Of a stretch of 64,000 nucleotides of DNA, positions 1,879-64,000 are shown piece after piece; position 1 is the first letter of the stretch; the number at the start of each line of letters is the position of its first letter. A model generated the notes under the pieces. It did no database searches. It was not told the origin of the DNA and saw nothing but the letters and a program-made list of their open reading frames with translations. The DNA lies in IMG/VR virus record IMGVR_UViG_3300044641_001047, positions 12,497 through 76,496 of that record, one strand, 5' to 3'. Made by a program: the position numbers and the translations under genes. This stretch comes from a virus.

Positions 1879-4800
1879 TTAAAGCATACATATTTGGGTG
1901 ATGTCCCCTTTTTTCTCTTCGTCCATTGTGTTATCTAAGAAGACATCTAACTTCTCTATTACAGAATCTATTGGCTTACTTTTTCCTACAACTCTTGGGT
2001 AAAGAGTAGCTCCCCCAACAAGGTGTTTTTTTTCGTTAGTAGTTTTACCTAACACCATATACTTTCCTATTTTTCCATCTTTTGATATACTACCAAGAAT
2101 ATAAACATCAGAGTCTGTTTTAGTTCTAACTACAAGAGCTGAAGGAATAGATGAGTATTCTTCTAAATTGATATCAATTTCTTTATCAGGCTTTCCTACT
2201 TCATCAAAGTTTTTACGTTGTAAAAGGTTACTTCCACCAGGTCTCATCTCCCCAAATATTCTTAGGAATCTAAGCATATCCTCCCCCTCAAAGTACCTAC
2301 CATTAGCCATTTTCATTGCCTGCTCATGAAGATAATCAGAAATGCTTATAGGTTCTAGATCTTCAGCGGTTCTATCCATAGGTTGGGTAAGGAATCTTGG
2401 GGGTAACAAGTCTGCAAAGTTAAATGGAGTTTGCTTAAATCCATTGGCAATAAGTGTATGCATTGCTAATTTATTACCTAAAGTCTTGATATCTTCAACT
2501 CCTTTCTTACGTTCAGCTATTTCTTTTTCTGTTGCCCCCTTTCTAAGTCTTGGTAAAAACTTCTCAGGTCTGTACAACATATCAGTAAGGTCATTGATGA
2601 TTCTATCCTTCTCATTTACTGTATACTGTTGCTGAGCATCAAACTGCAAGCTTCTAAAAGTCTTACTATTCTTGTTATCAGGATCTTCAGTAATCTTTAC
2701 AAAGAACTCATTACCTGCAAGCTTAGGGTATTTCTTTAAAATCATGGACATCTGCTTAAGCAGTGTTGACTTGTTTTTACTTGTACGATAGTTCTCATCA
2801 CTATACCCTTTACCAAAAAATGCTTTGAGTGGAGAGTCCTGCCTTGTAAGAATTGTGAATATTATTGCAGAGTTTATATCTCTGTGCTGATCACTTGTAA
2901 ATGTATTAGTAGGTGGAGCTGCTATCTTTCTCAAAGTATTCTTAAATCCTATGAACTCAGATGATAATGTCATTGGGAACAGTATTGATGCTACCCCTAA
3001 TGTTTCAGATATCATTTTATAGTAGCCTCTCTGTAATCCATATGGAGAATCTTCATCAAGAACTTGTTCGATTATACTCTCTGACATATTTCTTCCGTAT
3101 AGAGCTATAGGGGCATTGTCTACAAATCCATCTTTAGGGTTTGCAAACTTTTCCATTCTCTCCATATAGGCCTGCATAGCTTCTACTCTATTCAAACCAT
3201 CCATGCTATCAGGAGTAATGACCTTAAACATTTCTACAATCTGTCTTCCTCCAGAGTACATCTTCATAAAGTTTCTTAAAGCTACTGCAGGGGGTAGAGT
3301 AAAATTCATTATATCCTCTCTAGACATTGCAGTAGTCCTTTCAATTCTTTTATAATTATTTGCTATCTCAGTCTCTGGGTTTATACCGTGTAGAGCAGCA
3401 GCTTGACGATACCCATTGTTAACCATTGCAAGGTTATTGTTGTACTTATCAGACATTATGTTTACAAAATCTCTGATGATAGGCTGGTTAAGGAAGAAGT
3501 GCATTAACTCTGTATCACCGTAGAAATTAATCCATAGAACTTCTACAGGGAAAGTAACTTCATTATCATTGATGATGTAGTGGAATGGATTCTTAGAAGC
3601 ATCCACGGCAGCATTAAGATATCGAGAGATAATTTTATCTGTAAATTCCAAGTGATCGTATGCTGCAAATGGGTTATCTACTTGAGTAAGAAACTTAGTA
3701 TTTATTTTCTCTCCTGCTATCTTAACAGCAAATGAGTCAAATAGATTTATGTCTAAGTGTTGAGCTACATTCCTTCCTGCAAGAGCATTAGACCACTTAC
3801 CTCTCAGCTTGTTACCAAGAAGGTTTCTAACAGCACTGTTGGTATGGTACATACCCCCTGTAAACATTGGGATATCTTCAAGGTCAGGCATTTTTTCAAG
3901 GATACTGTCTTTGATATTACCAAGTGCAGCTGTGTCCAAAGGGCTAAGAGTTTCAGAGAAGTGAATAGGGCTACTGAGTACAGCCTCCATTGTATCAATG
4001 AAGATATTATTAAGCTGCTTCTCATTTAGTTTTGTAACCAATTCAGGATTGCTGGCAAGTTCTGCATAATTAGCAGATTCTTTAACCATAACCCCATCCT
4101 TCATGCTAACCTCAGGGAAAAGCAAAAACATTTTATCGACGTCAAAGTCAGATCCCATAAGCTTAACAAGCTGTGGTGGGACTACAATTGCTTTAGCATA
4201 ATTATCAGGTAGGACAGCTTTAATCTTTAGAATAACCATAGATGCCTTATCCTGGTTGGGGATACGATAACCAATAATTCTTCTAAGCTCTTCTGGGATG
4301 TTATCTAAATTGATCTCCCCTTCAGGTAAGTTAAACTTTCTAAGTACATCAGCTCTTATCATTATCTCTGCATGTGCCAATCTGACTCCATACTTTGTAT
4401 TGTTTGGATCATCTTCAATCTCCAAGAACTTAAGGGTTTCATTAGTCTCAAACCCACCAAGAGCTGCAGTCTGCACAGCCTCTGTCCCAGATAGCCTTTG
4501 CTTAAATACATTGTTGTTGTATATGCTAAGCAAAGCTGATTGAAACTTTTTACCAAATACAGGGTAGTCAAGTGGAATTGCAAATCTTGGGATAAGAGTA
4601 TCAGGATCTATAGTGATATCAAGAGCATCTAGATAGTTCTGGCTCATATCTCTTTCGATAGCCTGCTTCTCAAGAATGGTACGTATATTTTTAAGCAGTT
4701 CTAGCTTAGCATTTATAAAATCTTCTGAGCTCTTAAGGTGACTGATATTAACCTTACCCTTAACCTTATGCCCTTCTACAAGATTAGCAATTGCTTTACG

Positions 4801-59963: not shown

Positions 59964-60026
59964 ACCTATGTTATGTAAACTCGTATTAAAATTTGGAAAA
60001 ATTCATGCAGCTTAAATCATTCACTA

Positions 60027-60130
60027 AAACCACATTATAGTGTGAATCTAGCTGTATCCTATATCTGATAAGGAGTTTATTACCCTTAAACCACATTATA
60101 CTGTAACAAATCTGTGTAAAATTTGTTACA
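60027..60130. repeat. Direct repeat (AAACCACATTATA x2) and 10-bp perfect inverted repeat
   Basis: Direct repeats at 60027-60039 and 60088-60100; TGTAACAAAT (60102-60111) / ATTTGTTACA (60121-60130). Confidence 0.7.
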
Positions 60131-60256
60131 AAAAATTTTTTAAAATCTGGGAAAATTTTGTGGGAGTGAGGCCCTACGTATTCAAAGACCCCCGCTAAGT
60201 TTTGGGCATTGGAAATGTCCCCTATTTAATCGTAAACTCTTAAATTTATATAAGCA

Positions 60257-60589
60257 ATGTCAACGAAAGTTAAAGCTTCCAGTACAACCCAAGAGGCTTG
60301 GTTTGTACCCGTTCATGCAACTTTGTACAAGAACGATGCCAACACTAAGGTGGTTGGTGTTTACGTTACTGACACCCTTCCGCAGCAAGCTGCTGTTCAG
60401 GGTACCAGAAACAAACAGGGCAAAATAACCTTAAAGGTTAAAGCCCTTGCTGTAGATCCTAAGAAGACTAAGTCTTCAAGGCTCTTCAACTTTGTAAACA
60501 CAACCAATCCTGAGTGGAACATCACGATTGAGTTTCTCGTGCAAGAAGGTATTCTTGACGAGTCTGCCTTAGAGTTGCTCGTAGAGTAA
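60257..60589 (+). CDS. Hypothetical protein (first early-strand gene)
   Basis: 110 aa ORF followed by a strong terminator. Confidence 0.65.
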   Translation: MSTKVKASSTTQEAWFVPVHATLYKNDANTKVVGVYVTDTLPQQAAVQGTRNKQGKITLKVKALAVDPKKTKSSRLFNFVNTTNPEWNITIEFLVQEGILDESALELLVE

Positions 60590-60592
60590 GGC

Positions 60593-60622
60593 AAAAGGGG
60601 AACATTCGTTCCCCTTTTTTTT
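60593..60622 (+). terminator. Rho-independent terminator
   Basis: AAAAGGGGAAC-ATTC-GTTCCCC followed by T8. Confidence 0.8.
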
Positions 60623-60830
60623 ATTGTAAATTAGGCTTCATGTAGCACGTACGATTAAATAGTGACTAGCAGTGATTAAATAAAAATAATATTTGTGGTC
60701 ATAGTGAAGGACAGATGATTGTGTCCCAACTACTATCCCCACAATAAGTGTGGTATCATGATGACTGTGTAATCAGTTGTATAACATGGTATCACACTTT
60801 ATTCCTTTGTAATCAATACCTATATATACA

Positions 60831-61067
60831 ATGGATTCTTTAGATGCAGTTATTATTCCAGTTACAATACTGGAATATGATACCTATGATGATGCTATGC
60901 TACACTTAAATGACCAAGGTGTTACTCACTTGGGTTGGCTTAACAGTGGTATTAGTATCCCTGAACATTATACATTTGAAAAAGTGTATTCTAATTGGTC
61001 AGGTTCTTCGTGTCTTTATTGTGATCCTATCTATAGAGTATCATACTCTGTAGACATGGGTGACTAG
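60831..61067 (+). CDS. Hypothetical protein
   Basis: 78 aa; preceded by TTTGTAATCAATA. Confidence 0.55.
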   Translation: MDSLDAVIIPVTILEYDTYDDAMLHLNDQGVTHLGWLNSGISIPEHYTFEKVYSNWSGSSCLYCDPIYRVSYSVDMGD

Positions 61068-61241
61068 CAGAGGAGATAACCAAACGTAACGTGGAACAAC
61101 TCATGAAAGCATAATGAGCCACACATAACAGGAGTTAGGCATTTGGAATCTACGGTTTTATACCTGGGGATTTTACGACTTTATACTGTTATTTATATTT
61201 GTAATCAATAACTTAAATCAATAACAAACACTTAAATCATC

Positions 61242-61511
61242 ATGAGTTACACTCTTAACTTCATCAAAGTAATTACTCAGATTGCAGTAGTTGCTACACT
61301 TACATTCATTACTCCTGCTGCATTACATGCAGTAGTTGCATTCAATCTCGATTGCTATTTCACTGACATTACTAGTGGTGACTACCAATTCGGGATGGGC
61401 TTTGCAACTGTAATCATCACCATCATCTATATTGTAGCATACAGTATGGAGATGGAGGAACGTGCTGAACGTAGACGTGCTGAACATATTAAAACTCTTA
61501 CTAAGTTCTAA
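61242..61511 (+). CDS. Small membrane protein (2 TM)
   Basis: 89 aa; two hydrophobic segments and a charged tail. Confidence 0.6.
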   Translation: MSYTLNFIKVITQIAVVATLTFITPAALHAVVAFNLDCYFTDITSGDYQFGMGFATVIITIIYIVAYSMEMEERAERRRAEHIKTLTKF

Positions 61512-61523
61512 TACTATAGCACT

Positions 61524-61718
61524 ATGAAAGAGAACAAGCACAAATTTGCAGAAGATATCACAGCCTTCGGGTTGTTTATCATAGGGATTATCTTAGTTGT
61601 AATCTTCATGACATCATGTTCTACATCTAGAGGATATGGATATCATGACCATCTAAGGACTACACATCACAAGAACTTTATCTCTAAAGATAATGGTGGT
61701 TGTGGTTGGAATAGATAA
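61524..61718 (+). CDS. Small lipoprotein
   Basis: 64 aa; hydrophobic segment then FMTSC lipobox-like Cys. Confidence 0.55.
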   Translation: MKENKHKFAEDITAFGLFIIGIILVVIFMTSCSTSRGYGYHDHLRTTHHKNFISKDNGGCGWNR

Positions 61719-61814
61719 GGACTTTAACTATTGGACTTCATACAATAGTAGCTTGACGGTGAGGCTTAAACCGTTACTTTTATTTTGTAATCAATAACAA
61801 ACACATATAAAATC

Positions 61815-62384
61815 ATGACAAGAGAAAGAGCTAAAGAACTTATCCCTGTATATACTGCATGGGTTGAAGGCAAGACCGTAATGTACCAAGATCATCACGG
61901 AGAATGGAGAGAGATAGATCACTCCATTGGATTAGGTATGCATCCCTCTAAGTATAAAGTAGTAGAGGACGAAGGTGATGGCATCATGCCTGAAGAACCT
62001 GTGGAGTCTTACAAAGATGAACAGTGGTTCATTGATATGGTTAATGAAGATGCTAAATCAGATGCTGAATACTACGGCAATGATTCTCGCGAACGTGCTG
62101 ATGTACCAGAGTACATCGTTGCATCTACTAGTTATGATGCTCGTGAGACATATGTATTCGAAGCTACTGCTGATGGTAAGATAGTAACTTATGATGAGTA
62201 TGGTGGATTAGCAGAAAGATGGGGTGATACTAATTGGTATAATCCTGAAGCTGCTGTTAAATCATGCATGCCGAATACATACCATGCAGTATCTTCTAAA
62301 GGTAACTCTGTCTTATTCAAGATAGTTACACCTGATGAGTGCACTTATTTCGATGGTGATGAATCAGATAGAATCAGCTACTAA
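61815..62384 (+). CDS. Hypothetical protein
   Basis: 189 aa, acidic; MTRERAKELIPVYTAWVEGKTV N-terminus. Confidence 0.65.
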   Translation: MTRERAKELIPVYTAWVEGKTVMYQDHHGEWREIDHSIGLGMHPSKYKVVEDEGDGIMPEEPVESYKDEQWFIDMVNEDAKSDAEYYGNDSRERADVPEYIVASTSYDARETYVFEATADGKIVTYDEYGGLAERWGDTNWYNPEAAVKSCMPNTYHAVSSKGNSVLFKIVTPDECTYFDGDESDRISY

Positions 62385-62385
62385 T

Positions 62386-62754
62386 ATGAAGACACTTACC
62401 TACATCAAGAGAGTTGAGATAGAAGAAACAATACCGTTTCCTATCATCACATTTGTTGCTGAGAAAGTGCGAGTTTGTACAGGAGATAGCTCATGGTTTG
62501 ACATGGGCTATACTCCTAGACTCGATGGTCTAACACTACATCAGTATCGTAAACTTCATAATGCTTGGGATAGAGATATCGAGAAAGCCTTAGAAGAATA
62601 TGTAAAGACTACATATAATCTAAGTAGTGGATGGGGTTATATAGATCACCATGTTTATTCAGCTAAACAACTTGGGATGCCTGACCTCCCCAAAGTTGAT
62701 CCAAAGTTTAACGATGATCATGCTGATCTAGTTAGAATGTTTAAAGGGGCTTAG
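62386..62754 (+). CDS. Hypothetical protein
   Basis: Start revised to MKTLTYIK, immediately after the upstream stop. Confidence 0.6.
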   Translation: MKTLTYIKRVEIEETIPFPIITFVAEKVRVCTGDSSWFDMGYTPRLDGLTLHQYRKLHNAWDRDIEKALEEYVKTTYNLSSGWGYIDHHVYSAKQLGMPDLPKVDPKFNDDHADLVRMFKGA

Positions 62755-62763
62755 TCCCCTTTT
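62743..62763 (+). terminator. Terminator-like hairpin overlapping ribozyme P1
   Basis: AAAGGGG-CTTAGT-CCCCTTTT. Confidence 0.55.
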
Positions 62764-62820
62764 ACTAATGCAGCCAGGTAACACTGAAGGTCACAAGCCC
62801 TTTAATGCAGAGTGGTAAAA
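62760..62820 (+). ncRNA. Twister self-cleaving ribozyme, type P1
   Basis: P1 TTTTAC/GTAAAA; U|AA site (62766/62767); P2 TGCA/TGCA; GC; P3 CAG/CTG; P4 AAGG/CCTT with loop TCACAAGC; GA then GTG pairing with CAC (T1); GC/GC (T2). Confidence 0.88.
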
Positions 62821-62860
62821 CAATTTATTCATTTAATTTATTATTTAAATCATCAAAATC

Positions 62861-63466
62861 ATGATGAACAACACAATCAACAGTGGCTCGTTGCAGGGAT
62901 TGCAAGCGGGTCAAACCCTTTTACTCCAAGCTCGTAAGGTTAATGGAGACAAGATTCAATTGGAATTTGCTGAGATTGTCAAAACACAATCTAATGCAGC
63001 AAATCCACTTGCTCTATTTAACAAGTCAGACGACCGTTTCTCACAAGGCAATGGTGCACGTCGTGCTTGGTTAACTGCTGAAGCTAAGGATGCTTCAGTT
63101 TATCTCAACATCAACCTGATGGATGATGCTGACTGGCAAGTTGACCAAATGGGAAGAGAGATTCTCCCACTGAATGTCATCAATCCAGTAGCTCACATCA
63201 ATGGTGAAGCATTCCCATTGAAGGTGCAAGTTGAGGAGACTGTTACTCCTACGGATTGGCAGGCAAACAACATCCCAACTGCGGCTAAACGTCGTGGTAA
63301 AGATGGGGACTTCATCACTCACCAAGGTATGTATATCTTTGCTAACACTCGTGTAGTGTTTAACAAAGCTACTCACGTATTCCTTGAGGCTGATGCTGTT
63401 AAGTCTACTACAACTGGAGGTATCCGTGTAGGTGAAGACTTTGACTCTAGTCCGTTCTTCAGCTAA
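62861..63466 (+). CDS. Putative single-stranded DNA-binding protein
   Basis: 201 aa, beta-rich; acidic/aromatic C-terminus EDFDSSPFFS; early region. Confidence 0.45.
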   Translation: MMNNTINSGSLQGLQAGQTLLLQARKVNGDKIQLEFAEIVKTQSNAANPLALFNKSDDRFSQGNGARRAWLTAEAKDASVYLNINLMDDADWQVDQMGREILPLNVINPVAHINGEAFPLKVQVEETVTPTDWQANNIPTAAKRRGKDGDFITHQGMYIFANTRVVFNKATHVFLEADAVKSTTTGGIRVGEDFDSSPFFS

Positions 63467-63479
63467 TCATAGCTGAGTA

Positions 63480-63562
63480 AATCAGGTAGCTCAACTGGTA
63501 GAGCATAACGAGTTTTGTACTATTCTCGTTAAGGTGTGGGTTCGAATCCCACCCTGATTTCA
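63480..63562 (+). tRNA. tRNA-like RNA with enlarged, non-canonical anticodon arm (isotype undetermined)
   Basis: Acceptor AATCAGG/CCTGATT; D-arm GCTC-AACTGGTA-GAGC; T-arm GTGGG-TTCGAAT-CCCAC; anticodon arm 26 nt (7-bp stem, 12-nt loop). Confidence 0.7.
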
Positions 63563-63564
63563 TT

Positions 63565-63680
63565 AGTTGTAATAGTTTAATTGCTGGTAAACAAACAAGC
63601 CAGATTCAGGTGAAAAACTAATCCTGACAATTAAGTAGGAGTGAGATCCTATTATCCTACTCAAGGATACTATTGCAACT
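63565..63680 (+). ncRNA. Candidate multi-junction structured RNA
   Basis: 12-bp closing stem, nested three-way junction, additional hairpin and possible pseudoknot. Confidence 0.5.
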
Positions 63681-63832
63681 TACCTTATAAATCCTCCACA
63701 TTGCTTAGAGTTTAATTAAAGACAACGAACTATAATGAGTCTGAGGATGCTCATTGTTCGTTGTTTTTAATCAGGATGTTTTGTGTATGTACAGCTTACG
63801 GAACAATTTAATTTAATCTAAATCAATAACTT

Positions 63833-64000
63833 ATGTCAAGAATGAAATTAGTATTTGACTTGATGGAGTCTGGGACTTATCAAGCGTTTGAATGTCAGGC
63901 TATGTTAGCTGCTGAACGTGGGGAAAAGCACTTTCAGTTTGGTAATGCATCGTATGATGTAGAGTTTGCTGCCAATGTGATGGCTTATATTTACCACAAA
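63833..64000 (+). CDS. Hypothetical protein, truncated by window end
   Basis: MSRMKLVFDLMESGTYQAFEC... is open to 64000; preceded by AATCAATAAC. Confidence 0.6.
   Translation, partial: MSRMKLVFDLMESGTYQAFECQAMLAAERGEKHFQFGNASYDVEFAANVMAYIYHK

Follow-up and report, generated by a model that had tools for sequence, protein, structure and literature searches.

A non-decoding tRNA look-alike behind a conserved gene of a crAss-like phage, and its proposed use as an RNA cutting mark

The window, a 64,000-nucleotide (nt) stretch that forms the right-hand 64 kb of the 76.5-kb IMG/VR virus record IMGVR_UViG_3300044641_001047, contains a transfer RNA (tRNA) look-alike with an aberrant anticodon arm. 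The look-alike is located just behind an early gene for a protein of 201 amino acids (aa). Judged from its sequence and those of its relatives, it is a real, selected, non-decoding tRNA-like RNA that can be explained neither by faulty assembly nor as a pseudogene of recent origin. We consider it somewhat probable (about 0.55) that the look-alike is a cutting mark, probably derived from tRNA-Thr(UGU) and kept as a substrate for the host tRNA end-processing enzymes ribonuclease (RNase) P and RNase Z. The virus is assigned to the crAss-like phages because the window encodes a crAss-type major capsid protein (PF23898, E-value 1.5e-82 in a Pfam search).

Structure and conservation of the look-alike

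The body of the look-alike has the components of a canonical tRNA, with a 7-base-pair (bp) acceptor stem, a D arm with G18G19, a T arm with its T-loop, and a family score above the cut-off, whereas the canonical 5-bp, 7-nt anticodon arm, with U33, anticodon 34-36, purine 37, and an assignable isotype, is replaced by a stem of 7 bp and a loop of 12 nt (Table 1). This arm is 26 nt long instead of the normal 17. The 3′ end consists of the discriminator T63560 followed by CA, and CCA is not encoded. An earlier, sequence-only reading of this DNA had described the fully paired stems, U8-A9, the D-loop GG, the T-loop TTCGAAT, the enlarged arm, and the T-CA end, and all of them were found where it had placed them. 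ARAGORN, one of the checks which that reading had proposed, reports "tRNA-???" at 63480-63561 and leaves the amino acid unassigned. The Rfam tRNA family (RF00005) matches positions 63480-63560 with 57 bits against a gathering score of 29 (E-value 7e-11), and the alignment places a 16-nt insert at the position of the 7-nt loop. The cloverleaf is the minimum-energy fold (-26.6 kcal/mol, z-score -3.6), and none of 200 shuffled sequences fold as well. The element is the sole tRNA-type match in the whole 76.5-kb record.

Related loci were fetched using the 201-aa open reading frame (ORF), which ends 13 nt before the look-alike, as an anchor. The search provided 27 viral and 80 metagenome loci, with some contigs common to both sets, and the slot behind the gene was surveyed in 105 loci (the window and 104 related ones), 97 of which could be classed. 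The contigs originate mostly from lakes and rivers, and a more distant group is marine. The freshwater clade has 70-100% protein identity to the product of the 201-aa ORF and includes 15 distinct look-alike sequences, whereas the marine relatives have 46-57% identity. A look-alike occupies the same slot in 42 loci with 29 distinct sequences, 10-52 nt past the stop codon of the homologous gene, and 13-23 nt past it in the freshwater clade. The element is consistent across sequences assembled independently from many lakes, rivers, and seas.

The acceptor, D, and T arms are near-constant or compensated across the 15 freshwater sequences, with compensatory changes in acceptor pairs 1, 3, 4, 6, and 7, D pair 4, and T pair 1. 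A covariance model of these sequences recovered 39 elements. In the alignment fitted to this model, the rows of which include seven true tRNAs, 96% of the cells of 37 distinct sequences are paired, and compensatory changes occur in 22 of the 23 pairs. This level was reached by none of 500 shuffles, and slid controls were 36-46% paired.

The anticodon arm has no common form. In some freshwater versions, a 7-bp stem carries a loop of 12, 22, 20, or 5 nt. In others, a tetraloop caps a 6-bp stem or the second stem, of 3-4 bp, of an arm that also has 5 bp and a bulge, or the arm consists of 4+6 bp and a loop of 6 nt. The canonical 5-bp, 7-nt arm was found in none of the 15 distinct freshwater sequences and in none of the 29 distinct look-alikes, among which the arm ranges from a 16-nt tetraloop hairpin to 37 nt (-1 to +20 nt of extra length) or is absent. 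ARAGORN accordingly names odd "anticodons", tttg in the window and ttt, ata, or agt in relatives. The marine versions, 48-100 nt long, keep the acceptor stem and T arm, and their middle is formed by long closed hairpins or lacks one arm. Minimal forms with an acceptor stem and one or two hairpins are present in L008, L021, and L104; in L008, only an identical acceptor stem is left, mounted on a 6-bp hairpin as a minihelix. The parts that are constant across relatives are the acceptor/T-arm helix and the D/T elbow, retained in a tRNA fold without a working anticodon. Conservation and covariation among relatives support the claim of the sequence-only reading that the element is a selected non-decoding RNA rather than a product of decay.

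A normal 17-nt arm, for which the sequence-only reading had suggested looking, is found in no close relative. Genuine tRNAs are restricted to a distant group with 53% protein identity (L019 and L099-L101), which carries a 72-nt tRNA-Thr(UGU) in the same spacer, 120 nt past the stop codon. The D arm of the look-alike is identical to that of the tRNA-Thr(UGU) of L019, L099, and L101, the U73-CA tail is common to both, and the 12-nt loop in the window contains TTTGTAC, the anticodon loop of the L019 tRNA. From these resemblances, we infer that the look-alike probably descends from a phage tRNA-Thr(UGU) gene.

Table 1. Features of the window, numbered by window position, and of related loci, numbered within the locus named
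Feature	Position or loci	Strand	Sequence or evidence
Hairpin at the upstream stop codon	62743..62762	+	AAAGGGG / loop CTTAGT / CCCCTTT; terminator-like match 62746-62758
Twister-P1-type ribozyme candidate	62762..62818	+	Rfam RF03160, 48.1 bits, E-value 8e-9
Conserved 201-aa early gene, flanked by RNA elements	62861..63466	+	410 homologues
Stop-codon hairpin, 8 bp	63458..63477	+	TTCAGCTA / loop ATCA / TAGCTGAG; ViennaRNA -9.0 kcal/mol
tRNA look-alike, non-decoding	63480..63562	+	Sequence, ARAGORN, Rfam, folding, covariation
Acceptor stem	63480-86 : 63553-59	+	AATCAGG : CCTGATT; sequence
U8-A9	63487-88	+	TA; sequence
D arm	63489-63504	+	GCTC / loop AACTGGTA with GG / GAGC; sequence
Anticodon arm, aberrant	63506-63531	+	TAACGAG/CTCGTTA, 7 bp, around 12-nt loop TTTTGTACTATT
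Variable region, 4 nt		+	AGGT; sequence
T arm	63536-52	+	GTGGG / TTCGAAT / CCCAC; sequence
Folded insert, about 116 nt	63565..63680	+	Closed by GTTGTAATAG/CTATTGCAAC; spacer comparison
Pseudoknotted terminator	63691..63769	+	ATCCTC 63691-96 : GAGGAT 63744-49; hairpin 63722-63765 and U-tract
Element D, about 50 nt past the stop codon, directly after a hairpin	L079, L093, L095, L096
Fold B, about 10-15 nt past the stop codon	L011-L017, L069, L070, L072-74, L077, L078, L081-84, L086
Fold C, behind a terminator-like hairpin after the gene	L071, L075, L076, L085, L090
Further look-alikes	L090 2725-2818 and 2936-3037; L075 2645-2761; L079 3323-3439; L121 1349-1434; L023 601-690; L106 50-126

RNA elements around the gene and in the slot

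The TAA stop codon of the 201-aa gene (63464-66) sits within a hairpin that ends 2 nt from the look-alike. Each of the 15 distinct freshwater relatives has such a hairpin, 7-12 bp long and formed with the final codons and the stop codon of the gene. The gap between this hairpin and position +1 of the look-alike is 0-3 nt, and the non-coding 3′ strand of the hairpin adapts to the coding strand. The look-alike is thus positioned at the border of another RNA, where a new end would be protected by local structure. No promoter dedicated to the look-alike was found: the Bacteroidota -7 motif TAnnTTTG is not enriched (79 found, 66 expected), and its sole nearby copy lies inside conserved codons. Four metatranscriptome assemblies from rivers and lakes contain short contigs of relatives, 88-97% like two ORFs of the window (62343-62660 and 62789-63396). 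None of them lies over 63397-63990; such contigs can show neither ends nor absence and are neutral with respect to processing.

The unit of a stop-codon hairpin followed by an element is repeated one gene upstream. There, the TAG stop codon of ORF 62335-62754 is in the loop of a hairpin, the U-tract of which runs into stem P1 of the twister candidate, located 45 nt upstream of the 201-aa ORF. The UAA, the P2 stem, the GCC and AAGCC segments, and GAG-GG of the twister core are all present in the cmscan alignments. The pseudoknot covaries between the window (CAC:GUG) and L015 (CCA:UGG). The same twister scores 57-59 bits in L008, L015, and L017 (Rfam), and in more than 20 related loci of the look-alike clade, a regular-expression search located it upstream of the gene, at a distance of 45-55 nt. 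The cut is predicted at U62766|A62767, which we take to be the twister cleavage site. In the marine loci L121, L023, and L106, a second look-alike is positioned upstream of the gene, on the flank where the freshwater phages have the twister. Its distance to the start codon is 66 nt in L121, where the gene has a look-alike on either side, and about 500 nt in L023 and L106.

The slot behind the gene has several other occupants: fold B (18 loci, 13 distinct sequences), fold C (5 loci, 4 distinct), the twister-like element D (4 loci, 4 distinct), true tRNA-Thr (4 loci, 3 distinct), the pseudoknotted terminator only, denoted E (7 loci, 6 distinct), and plain hairpins, classed as "other" together with the L008 minihelix (20 loci, 18 distinct). 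Element D contains stem P1, UAA, and covarying P2 (UGCAC/GUGCA or UGUAC/GUACA) and P4 stems, and its pseudoknot T1 covaries between CCC:GGG and CCA:UGG. P5, the extra stem after P4, is present, and P3, the stem before P4, is not. According to our hand alignment, element D may be a variant of twister. In L093 and L095, a long domain is inserted within P5.

Fold B is a nearly invariant structure of about 47 nt, composed of CCCCUG, a 15-nt internal loop, the hairpin CAAGG-AGCGAAA-CCUUG, and CAGGGGAAC. Pairing is conceivable between GTTC of this internal loop and the GAAC of the 3′ end. Fold C, which may be related to fold B, consists of CUUCUG, a 12-nt loop, the hairpin CAAGG-GUUGUAA-CCUUG, and CAGAAG-TACA, and TTGTA in its hairpin loop can pair with the 3′ tail TACAA. 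No Rfam family matched fold B, even when a 121-nt slice was searched with lax filters, and none matched fold C.

Downstream of the slot, the transcript would end at a conserved pseudoknotted terminator, in which a segment past the look-alike pairs with GAGGAT in the loop of a long terminator hairpin. This pairing was seen in the window, L002, L005/6, L009, L010, L027, L057, L011, and L013, with the 6-8-nt segment positioned a few nucleotides past the look-alike or fold B. The pairing covaries (ATACCTC:GAGGTAT, AATCCC:GGGATT, AAACCC:GGGTTT, AACCCT:GGGGTT, TCCATTCA:TGAATGGA, and CCTATTCT:AGAATAGG). In the E loci (L018, L091, L114-117, and L128), the terminator pseudoknot follows the gene directly, with CCGTGCA paired to the loop TGCACGG.

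In the window, a putatively folded insert is located directly 3′ of the look-alike; L004, the closest relative shown, and L057 are without it. Different inserts of 115-170 nt occupy the same place in L055, L056, L059, and L062/L064, and have a similar closing helix (GTTGTAA...TTACAAC) and unlike interiors. Because the otherwise close relatives L004 and L057 are without them, the inserts may be inserted RNA modules or small mobile elements, as judged from sequence comparison. If the look-alike is processed at its 3′ side, the insert of the window is a flanking RNA that would be set free.

Proposed function and its alternatives

The acceptor/T-arm helix and the D/T elbow are the parts of a tRNA that are read by RNase P, RNase Z, and the CCA-adding enzyme. 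We favor a cutting mark because the tRNA body, the minihelix, and the twister each direct one precise RNA cut. The look-alike would be co-transcribed with the 201-aa gene and fold into an L-shaped tRNA body. An RNase P cut at 63479|63480 would leave the upstream messenger RNA (mRNA) ending 2 nt past the 8-bp stop-codon hairpin, which would block 3′-exonucleases, and the twister cut at 62766|62767 would give this mRNA a 5′-OH at A62767. Trimming by RNase Z or exonucleases after U63560 would free the downstream folded RNA and the pseudoknotted terminator. The look-alike itself, about 81 nt long, would be a by-product or at most a secondary player. Its anticodon arm would be a mere spacer that must fold, and because the arm would have no other role, it would be free to vary, whereas the elbow and the acceptor/T helix would not. 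The end chemistry of ribozyme and RNase cuts is established and summarized in PMC6765202. Among the options listed in the sequence-only reading, RNase P/Z punctuation is the one favored by the interchangeable occupants of the slot, by the hairpin next to the predicted cut, and by the twister on the 5′ side of the gene.

Several observations weigh against a cutting mark. No RNA end was seen, and the RNA data consist of short assembled contigs of relatives, in which ends cannot appear. The slot holds nothing but hairpins or terminators in 18 or more distinct relatives, and about a fifth of the relatives manage with plain hairpins; therefore, a cut there is not essential to the gene. The twister of the window scores below the RF03160 gathering score of 67.2 bits, and element D has no Rfam match, even when a 171-nt slice was searched with lax filters. 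By Escherichia coli rules, the RNase P site is suboptimal, with A at -1, the A1-U72 pair, and no encoded CCA. The stable hairpin 0-3 nt upstream occupies the place where the RNase P protein normally binds a single-stranded leader. Finally, the look-alike retains the whole elbow, including G18G19, the T-loop, and the 15-48 pair, although a minimal substrate of RNase P can do without an elbow. This retention leaves room for another tRNA-binding partner.

Such a partner is central to an alternative that we regard as unlikely, in which the released look-alike is the product and serves as a decoy or sponge for a host tRNA-binding factor, such as RNase P, the CCA-adding enzyme, a modification enzyme, or a nuclease or toxin of a tRNA-targeting defense. 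The full L-shape, including the elbow nucleotides, is conserved beyond the needs of a minimal cutting site, the look-alike persists where the flanking protein is only 46-100% identical, and phage tRNAs that counter tRNA-cleaving defenses are known. However, the sole unconstrained part is the anticodon arm, the target of most known tRNA-directed defenses, which relatives close with tetraloops, stretch to 37 nt, or delete. The decoy for anticodon nucleases suggested by the sequence-only reading is thereby disfavored. Furthermore, L008 has the minihelix only, the twister-like and unrelated folds in the slot are not predicted by a decoy model, and searches of the neighboring genes against PHROG and Pfam identified no defense or counter-defense gene next to the look-alike.

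The look-alike could also act in cis and uncut, as a bulky fold of the 3′ untranslated region that joins the stop-codon hairpin and the pseudoknotted terminator in one composite structure. Such a structure could block exonucleases, tune termination or read-through into the next gene, or influence how ribosomes are released at the stop codon. This possibility draws mainly on the position of the look-alike, which has the stop-codon hairpin on one side and, 5-8 nt downstream, a 6-7-nt segment whose pairing with the terminator loop clearly covaries; the 3′ tRNA-like structures of plant viruses also act uncut. Nevertheless, we give this possibility slightly less credence than the decoy, as bacterial cells generally cut nearly any acceptor/T-arm helix of such quality, and the swap for a self-cleaving-type element in relatives fits cutting and not a passive fold. 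Moreover, the 116-nt insert parts the look-alike from the pseudoknot strand in the window, so adjacency is not required.

The resemblance to tRNA-Thr(UGU) in the D arm, the U73-CA tail, and the TTTGTAC of the loop would also be expected of a neutral relic, a drifting pseudogene that has lost its anticodon arm. Drift would have broken the stems, whereas compensatory changes have maintained those of the acceptor, D arm, and T arm in 29 distinct variants. The anticodon arm was rebuilt many times, always as a stable hairpin, and the agreement among assemblies from separate waters further makes a relic very improbable.

A working tRNA, from which a mini-intron is spliced or which decodes with an expanded loop as a quadruplet or suppressor-type tRNA, could account for the odd ARAGORN anticodons and for the Thr anticodon TGT in the loop, but hardly deserves credence: the arms, 16-37 nt long, share no loop, the 7-bp stem would push any anticodon out of register, and long ORFs are open under code 11, so there is no recoding for the look-alike to serve. 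The pairs A1-U72 and A2-U71 replace what we take to be the identity pairs of bacterial tRNA-Thr, G1-C72 and C2-G71. The mini-intron proposed by the sequence-only reading does not hold, as the variable extra length leaves no common exon-like loop. The 9 extra nucleotides of the window are too few for a self-splicing intron, the group I intron family (RF00028), with introns of about 200 nt or more, has no match at the site, and the plain 7-bp stem is without the 3-nt bulges of an archaeal bulge-helix-bulge. We know of no protein-dependent tRNA splicing in bacteria or their phages.

Two other classifications were rejected. A mimic of the transfer-messenger RNA (tmRNA) or YrlA type is contradicted by the ordinary, not permuted, tRNA topology: in tmRNA, the two RNA ends form the tRNA-like domain and a tag reading frame is present, and in YrlA, a permuted tRNA-like module is carried on a Ro-binding stem. 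ARAGORN found no tmRNA, and the tmRNA and YrlA families had no match at an E-value of 0.1 in the whole window or of 1 in 60000-64000. The element is not a phage integration site (attP), since the whole tRNA body is present and the acceptor stem covaries rather than matching a host tRNA.

Genomic setting, known systems, and implications

Searches of eight and nine neighboring ORFs against PHROG and Pfam named only an endolysin and the crAss capsid protein, and found no RNA-processing family. The 410 homologues of the 201-aa protein are all named "hypothetical", and the protein belongs to no Pfam or PHROG family. Its AlphaFold2 model has a predicted local distance difference test score (pLDDT) of 79. 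Foldseek returned nothing for the model at an E-value of 0.001 or better, ESM Atlas returned only "hypothetical" clusters, and VIA-align gave mixed weak rows with Z-scores of 3 or less, a few of which are nucleic-acid binders with the oligonucleotide/oligosaccharide-binding (OB) fold. Neither the DNA of 62000-64000 nor the protein of the 201-aa ORF had a match in the GenBank phage collection.

The exact pattern of the window look-alike had no match in the searched set of IMG/VR, outside which the window's own record may lie. A looser pattern, with the same D arm and T loop and a long middle, matched tRNAs of unrelated phages with long variable arms or other inserts, which are a different family. 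The unrelated viral contigs L041 (104-189), L043 (11222-11307), and L046 (9806-9891) contain tRNA-type genes that share this D arm and T loop and are longer by 25-40 nt in the anticodon arm or close to it; these genes may bear introns or be further non-decoding look-alikes. The related locus L010 has, about 1.8 kb downstream of its look-alike, a group I intron match at 3483-3698 that exceeds the gathering score (RF00028, 53 bits). Further look-alikes, 77-117 nt long and with a central domain that is irregular or too large, are located at other gene borders of related phages (Table 1), and those of L090 (second copy) and L079 come after a hairpin and ACAU.

A close parallel in arrangement is the mascRNA of mammalian MALAT1 and MEN-beta, which is tRNA-shaped, has a defective anticodon arm, and is located directly 3′ of a longer functional RNA. 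The RNase P cut makes the 3′ end of the upstream RNA, shielded by a structure just upstream, and RNase Z frees a small RNA that is not aminoacylated. The mascRNA system is eukaryotic and nuclear, its protector is a triple helix, and its cleavage was shown by experiment, whereas the phage element has a stop-codon hairpin and its cleavage is proposed. In addition, the phage look-alike serves a protein-coding mRNA and is paired with a ribozyme. Mitochondrial tRNAs similarly punctuate transcripts as tRNA-shaped RNase P/Z marks between genes, and truncated forms without arms still work. However, these tRNAs also decode, while in the phage, decoding has been given up and the mark is exchangeable for a ribozyme-like element. 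The tRNA-microRNA-encoded RNAs (TMERs) of murine gammaherpesvirus 68 also contain tRNA-like units that are not aminoacylated, from which tRNase Z frees 3′-fused folded RNAs comparable to the 116-nt insert. In contrast to the phage element, they are RNA polymerase III units of a eukaryotic virus, carry microRNA hairpins as cargo, and have no upstream mRNA.

Twister and hammerhead ribozymes at gene borders of phages and prophages are, like the elements that flank the 201-aa gene, small RNA-cutting elements in operons, and the candidate twister beside this gene belongs to the same type (RF03160); according to a review, the idea that such ribozymes process polycistronic transcripts near phage genes is a suggestion not yet shown, and the biological purpose of the ribozymes is undefined (PMC6765202). 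Those ribozymes cleave themselves, whereas the look-alike is without a ribozyme motif and would need host RNase P/Z. Theta ribozymes, which are minimal and similar to those of hepatitis delta virus (HDV), also combine a phage tRNA-type gene with a small ribozyme, and a role in RNA end formation was proposed for them (bioRxiv 10.1101/2023.06.13.544163). In gut phages, they adjoin the 3′ end of functional tRNAs, often of the suppressor kind, to trim the tRNA trailer, whereas in the window, the tRNA is non-decoding, the twister is about 700 nt upstream, and the apparent beneficiary is the mRNA between them. In the open-access literature, we found no account of non-decoding look-alikes exchanged with ribozymes in crAss-like phages.

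Elements of this kind appear in annotations as tRNA-??? or pseudo-tRNA and should be counted neither as decoding capacity nor as evidence of recoding. A broader proposal, which we regard as tentative and rather doubtful, is that environmental crAss-like phages use modular RNA punctuation, with look-alikes, twisters, and folds B and C as interchangeable cassettes between the stop-codon hairpin and the pseudoknotted terminator. If position predicts function, at least one of folds B and C would represent a new self-cleaving ribozyme class or a new kind of RNase substrate, and the slot, through its other occupants, would be a practical route to new ribozyme classes. If the look-alike is indeed a cutting mark, the phage keeps a tRNA gene purely for its shape and uses the most reliable RNA-cutting enzymes of the host as a free tool for mRNA maturation, interchangeable with self-cleaving ribozymes. 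The orphan ribozymes and "broken" tRNAs of phages would then share a testable purpose, the production of single-gene mRNAs with defined, hairpin-capped ends.

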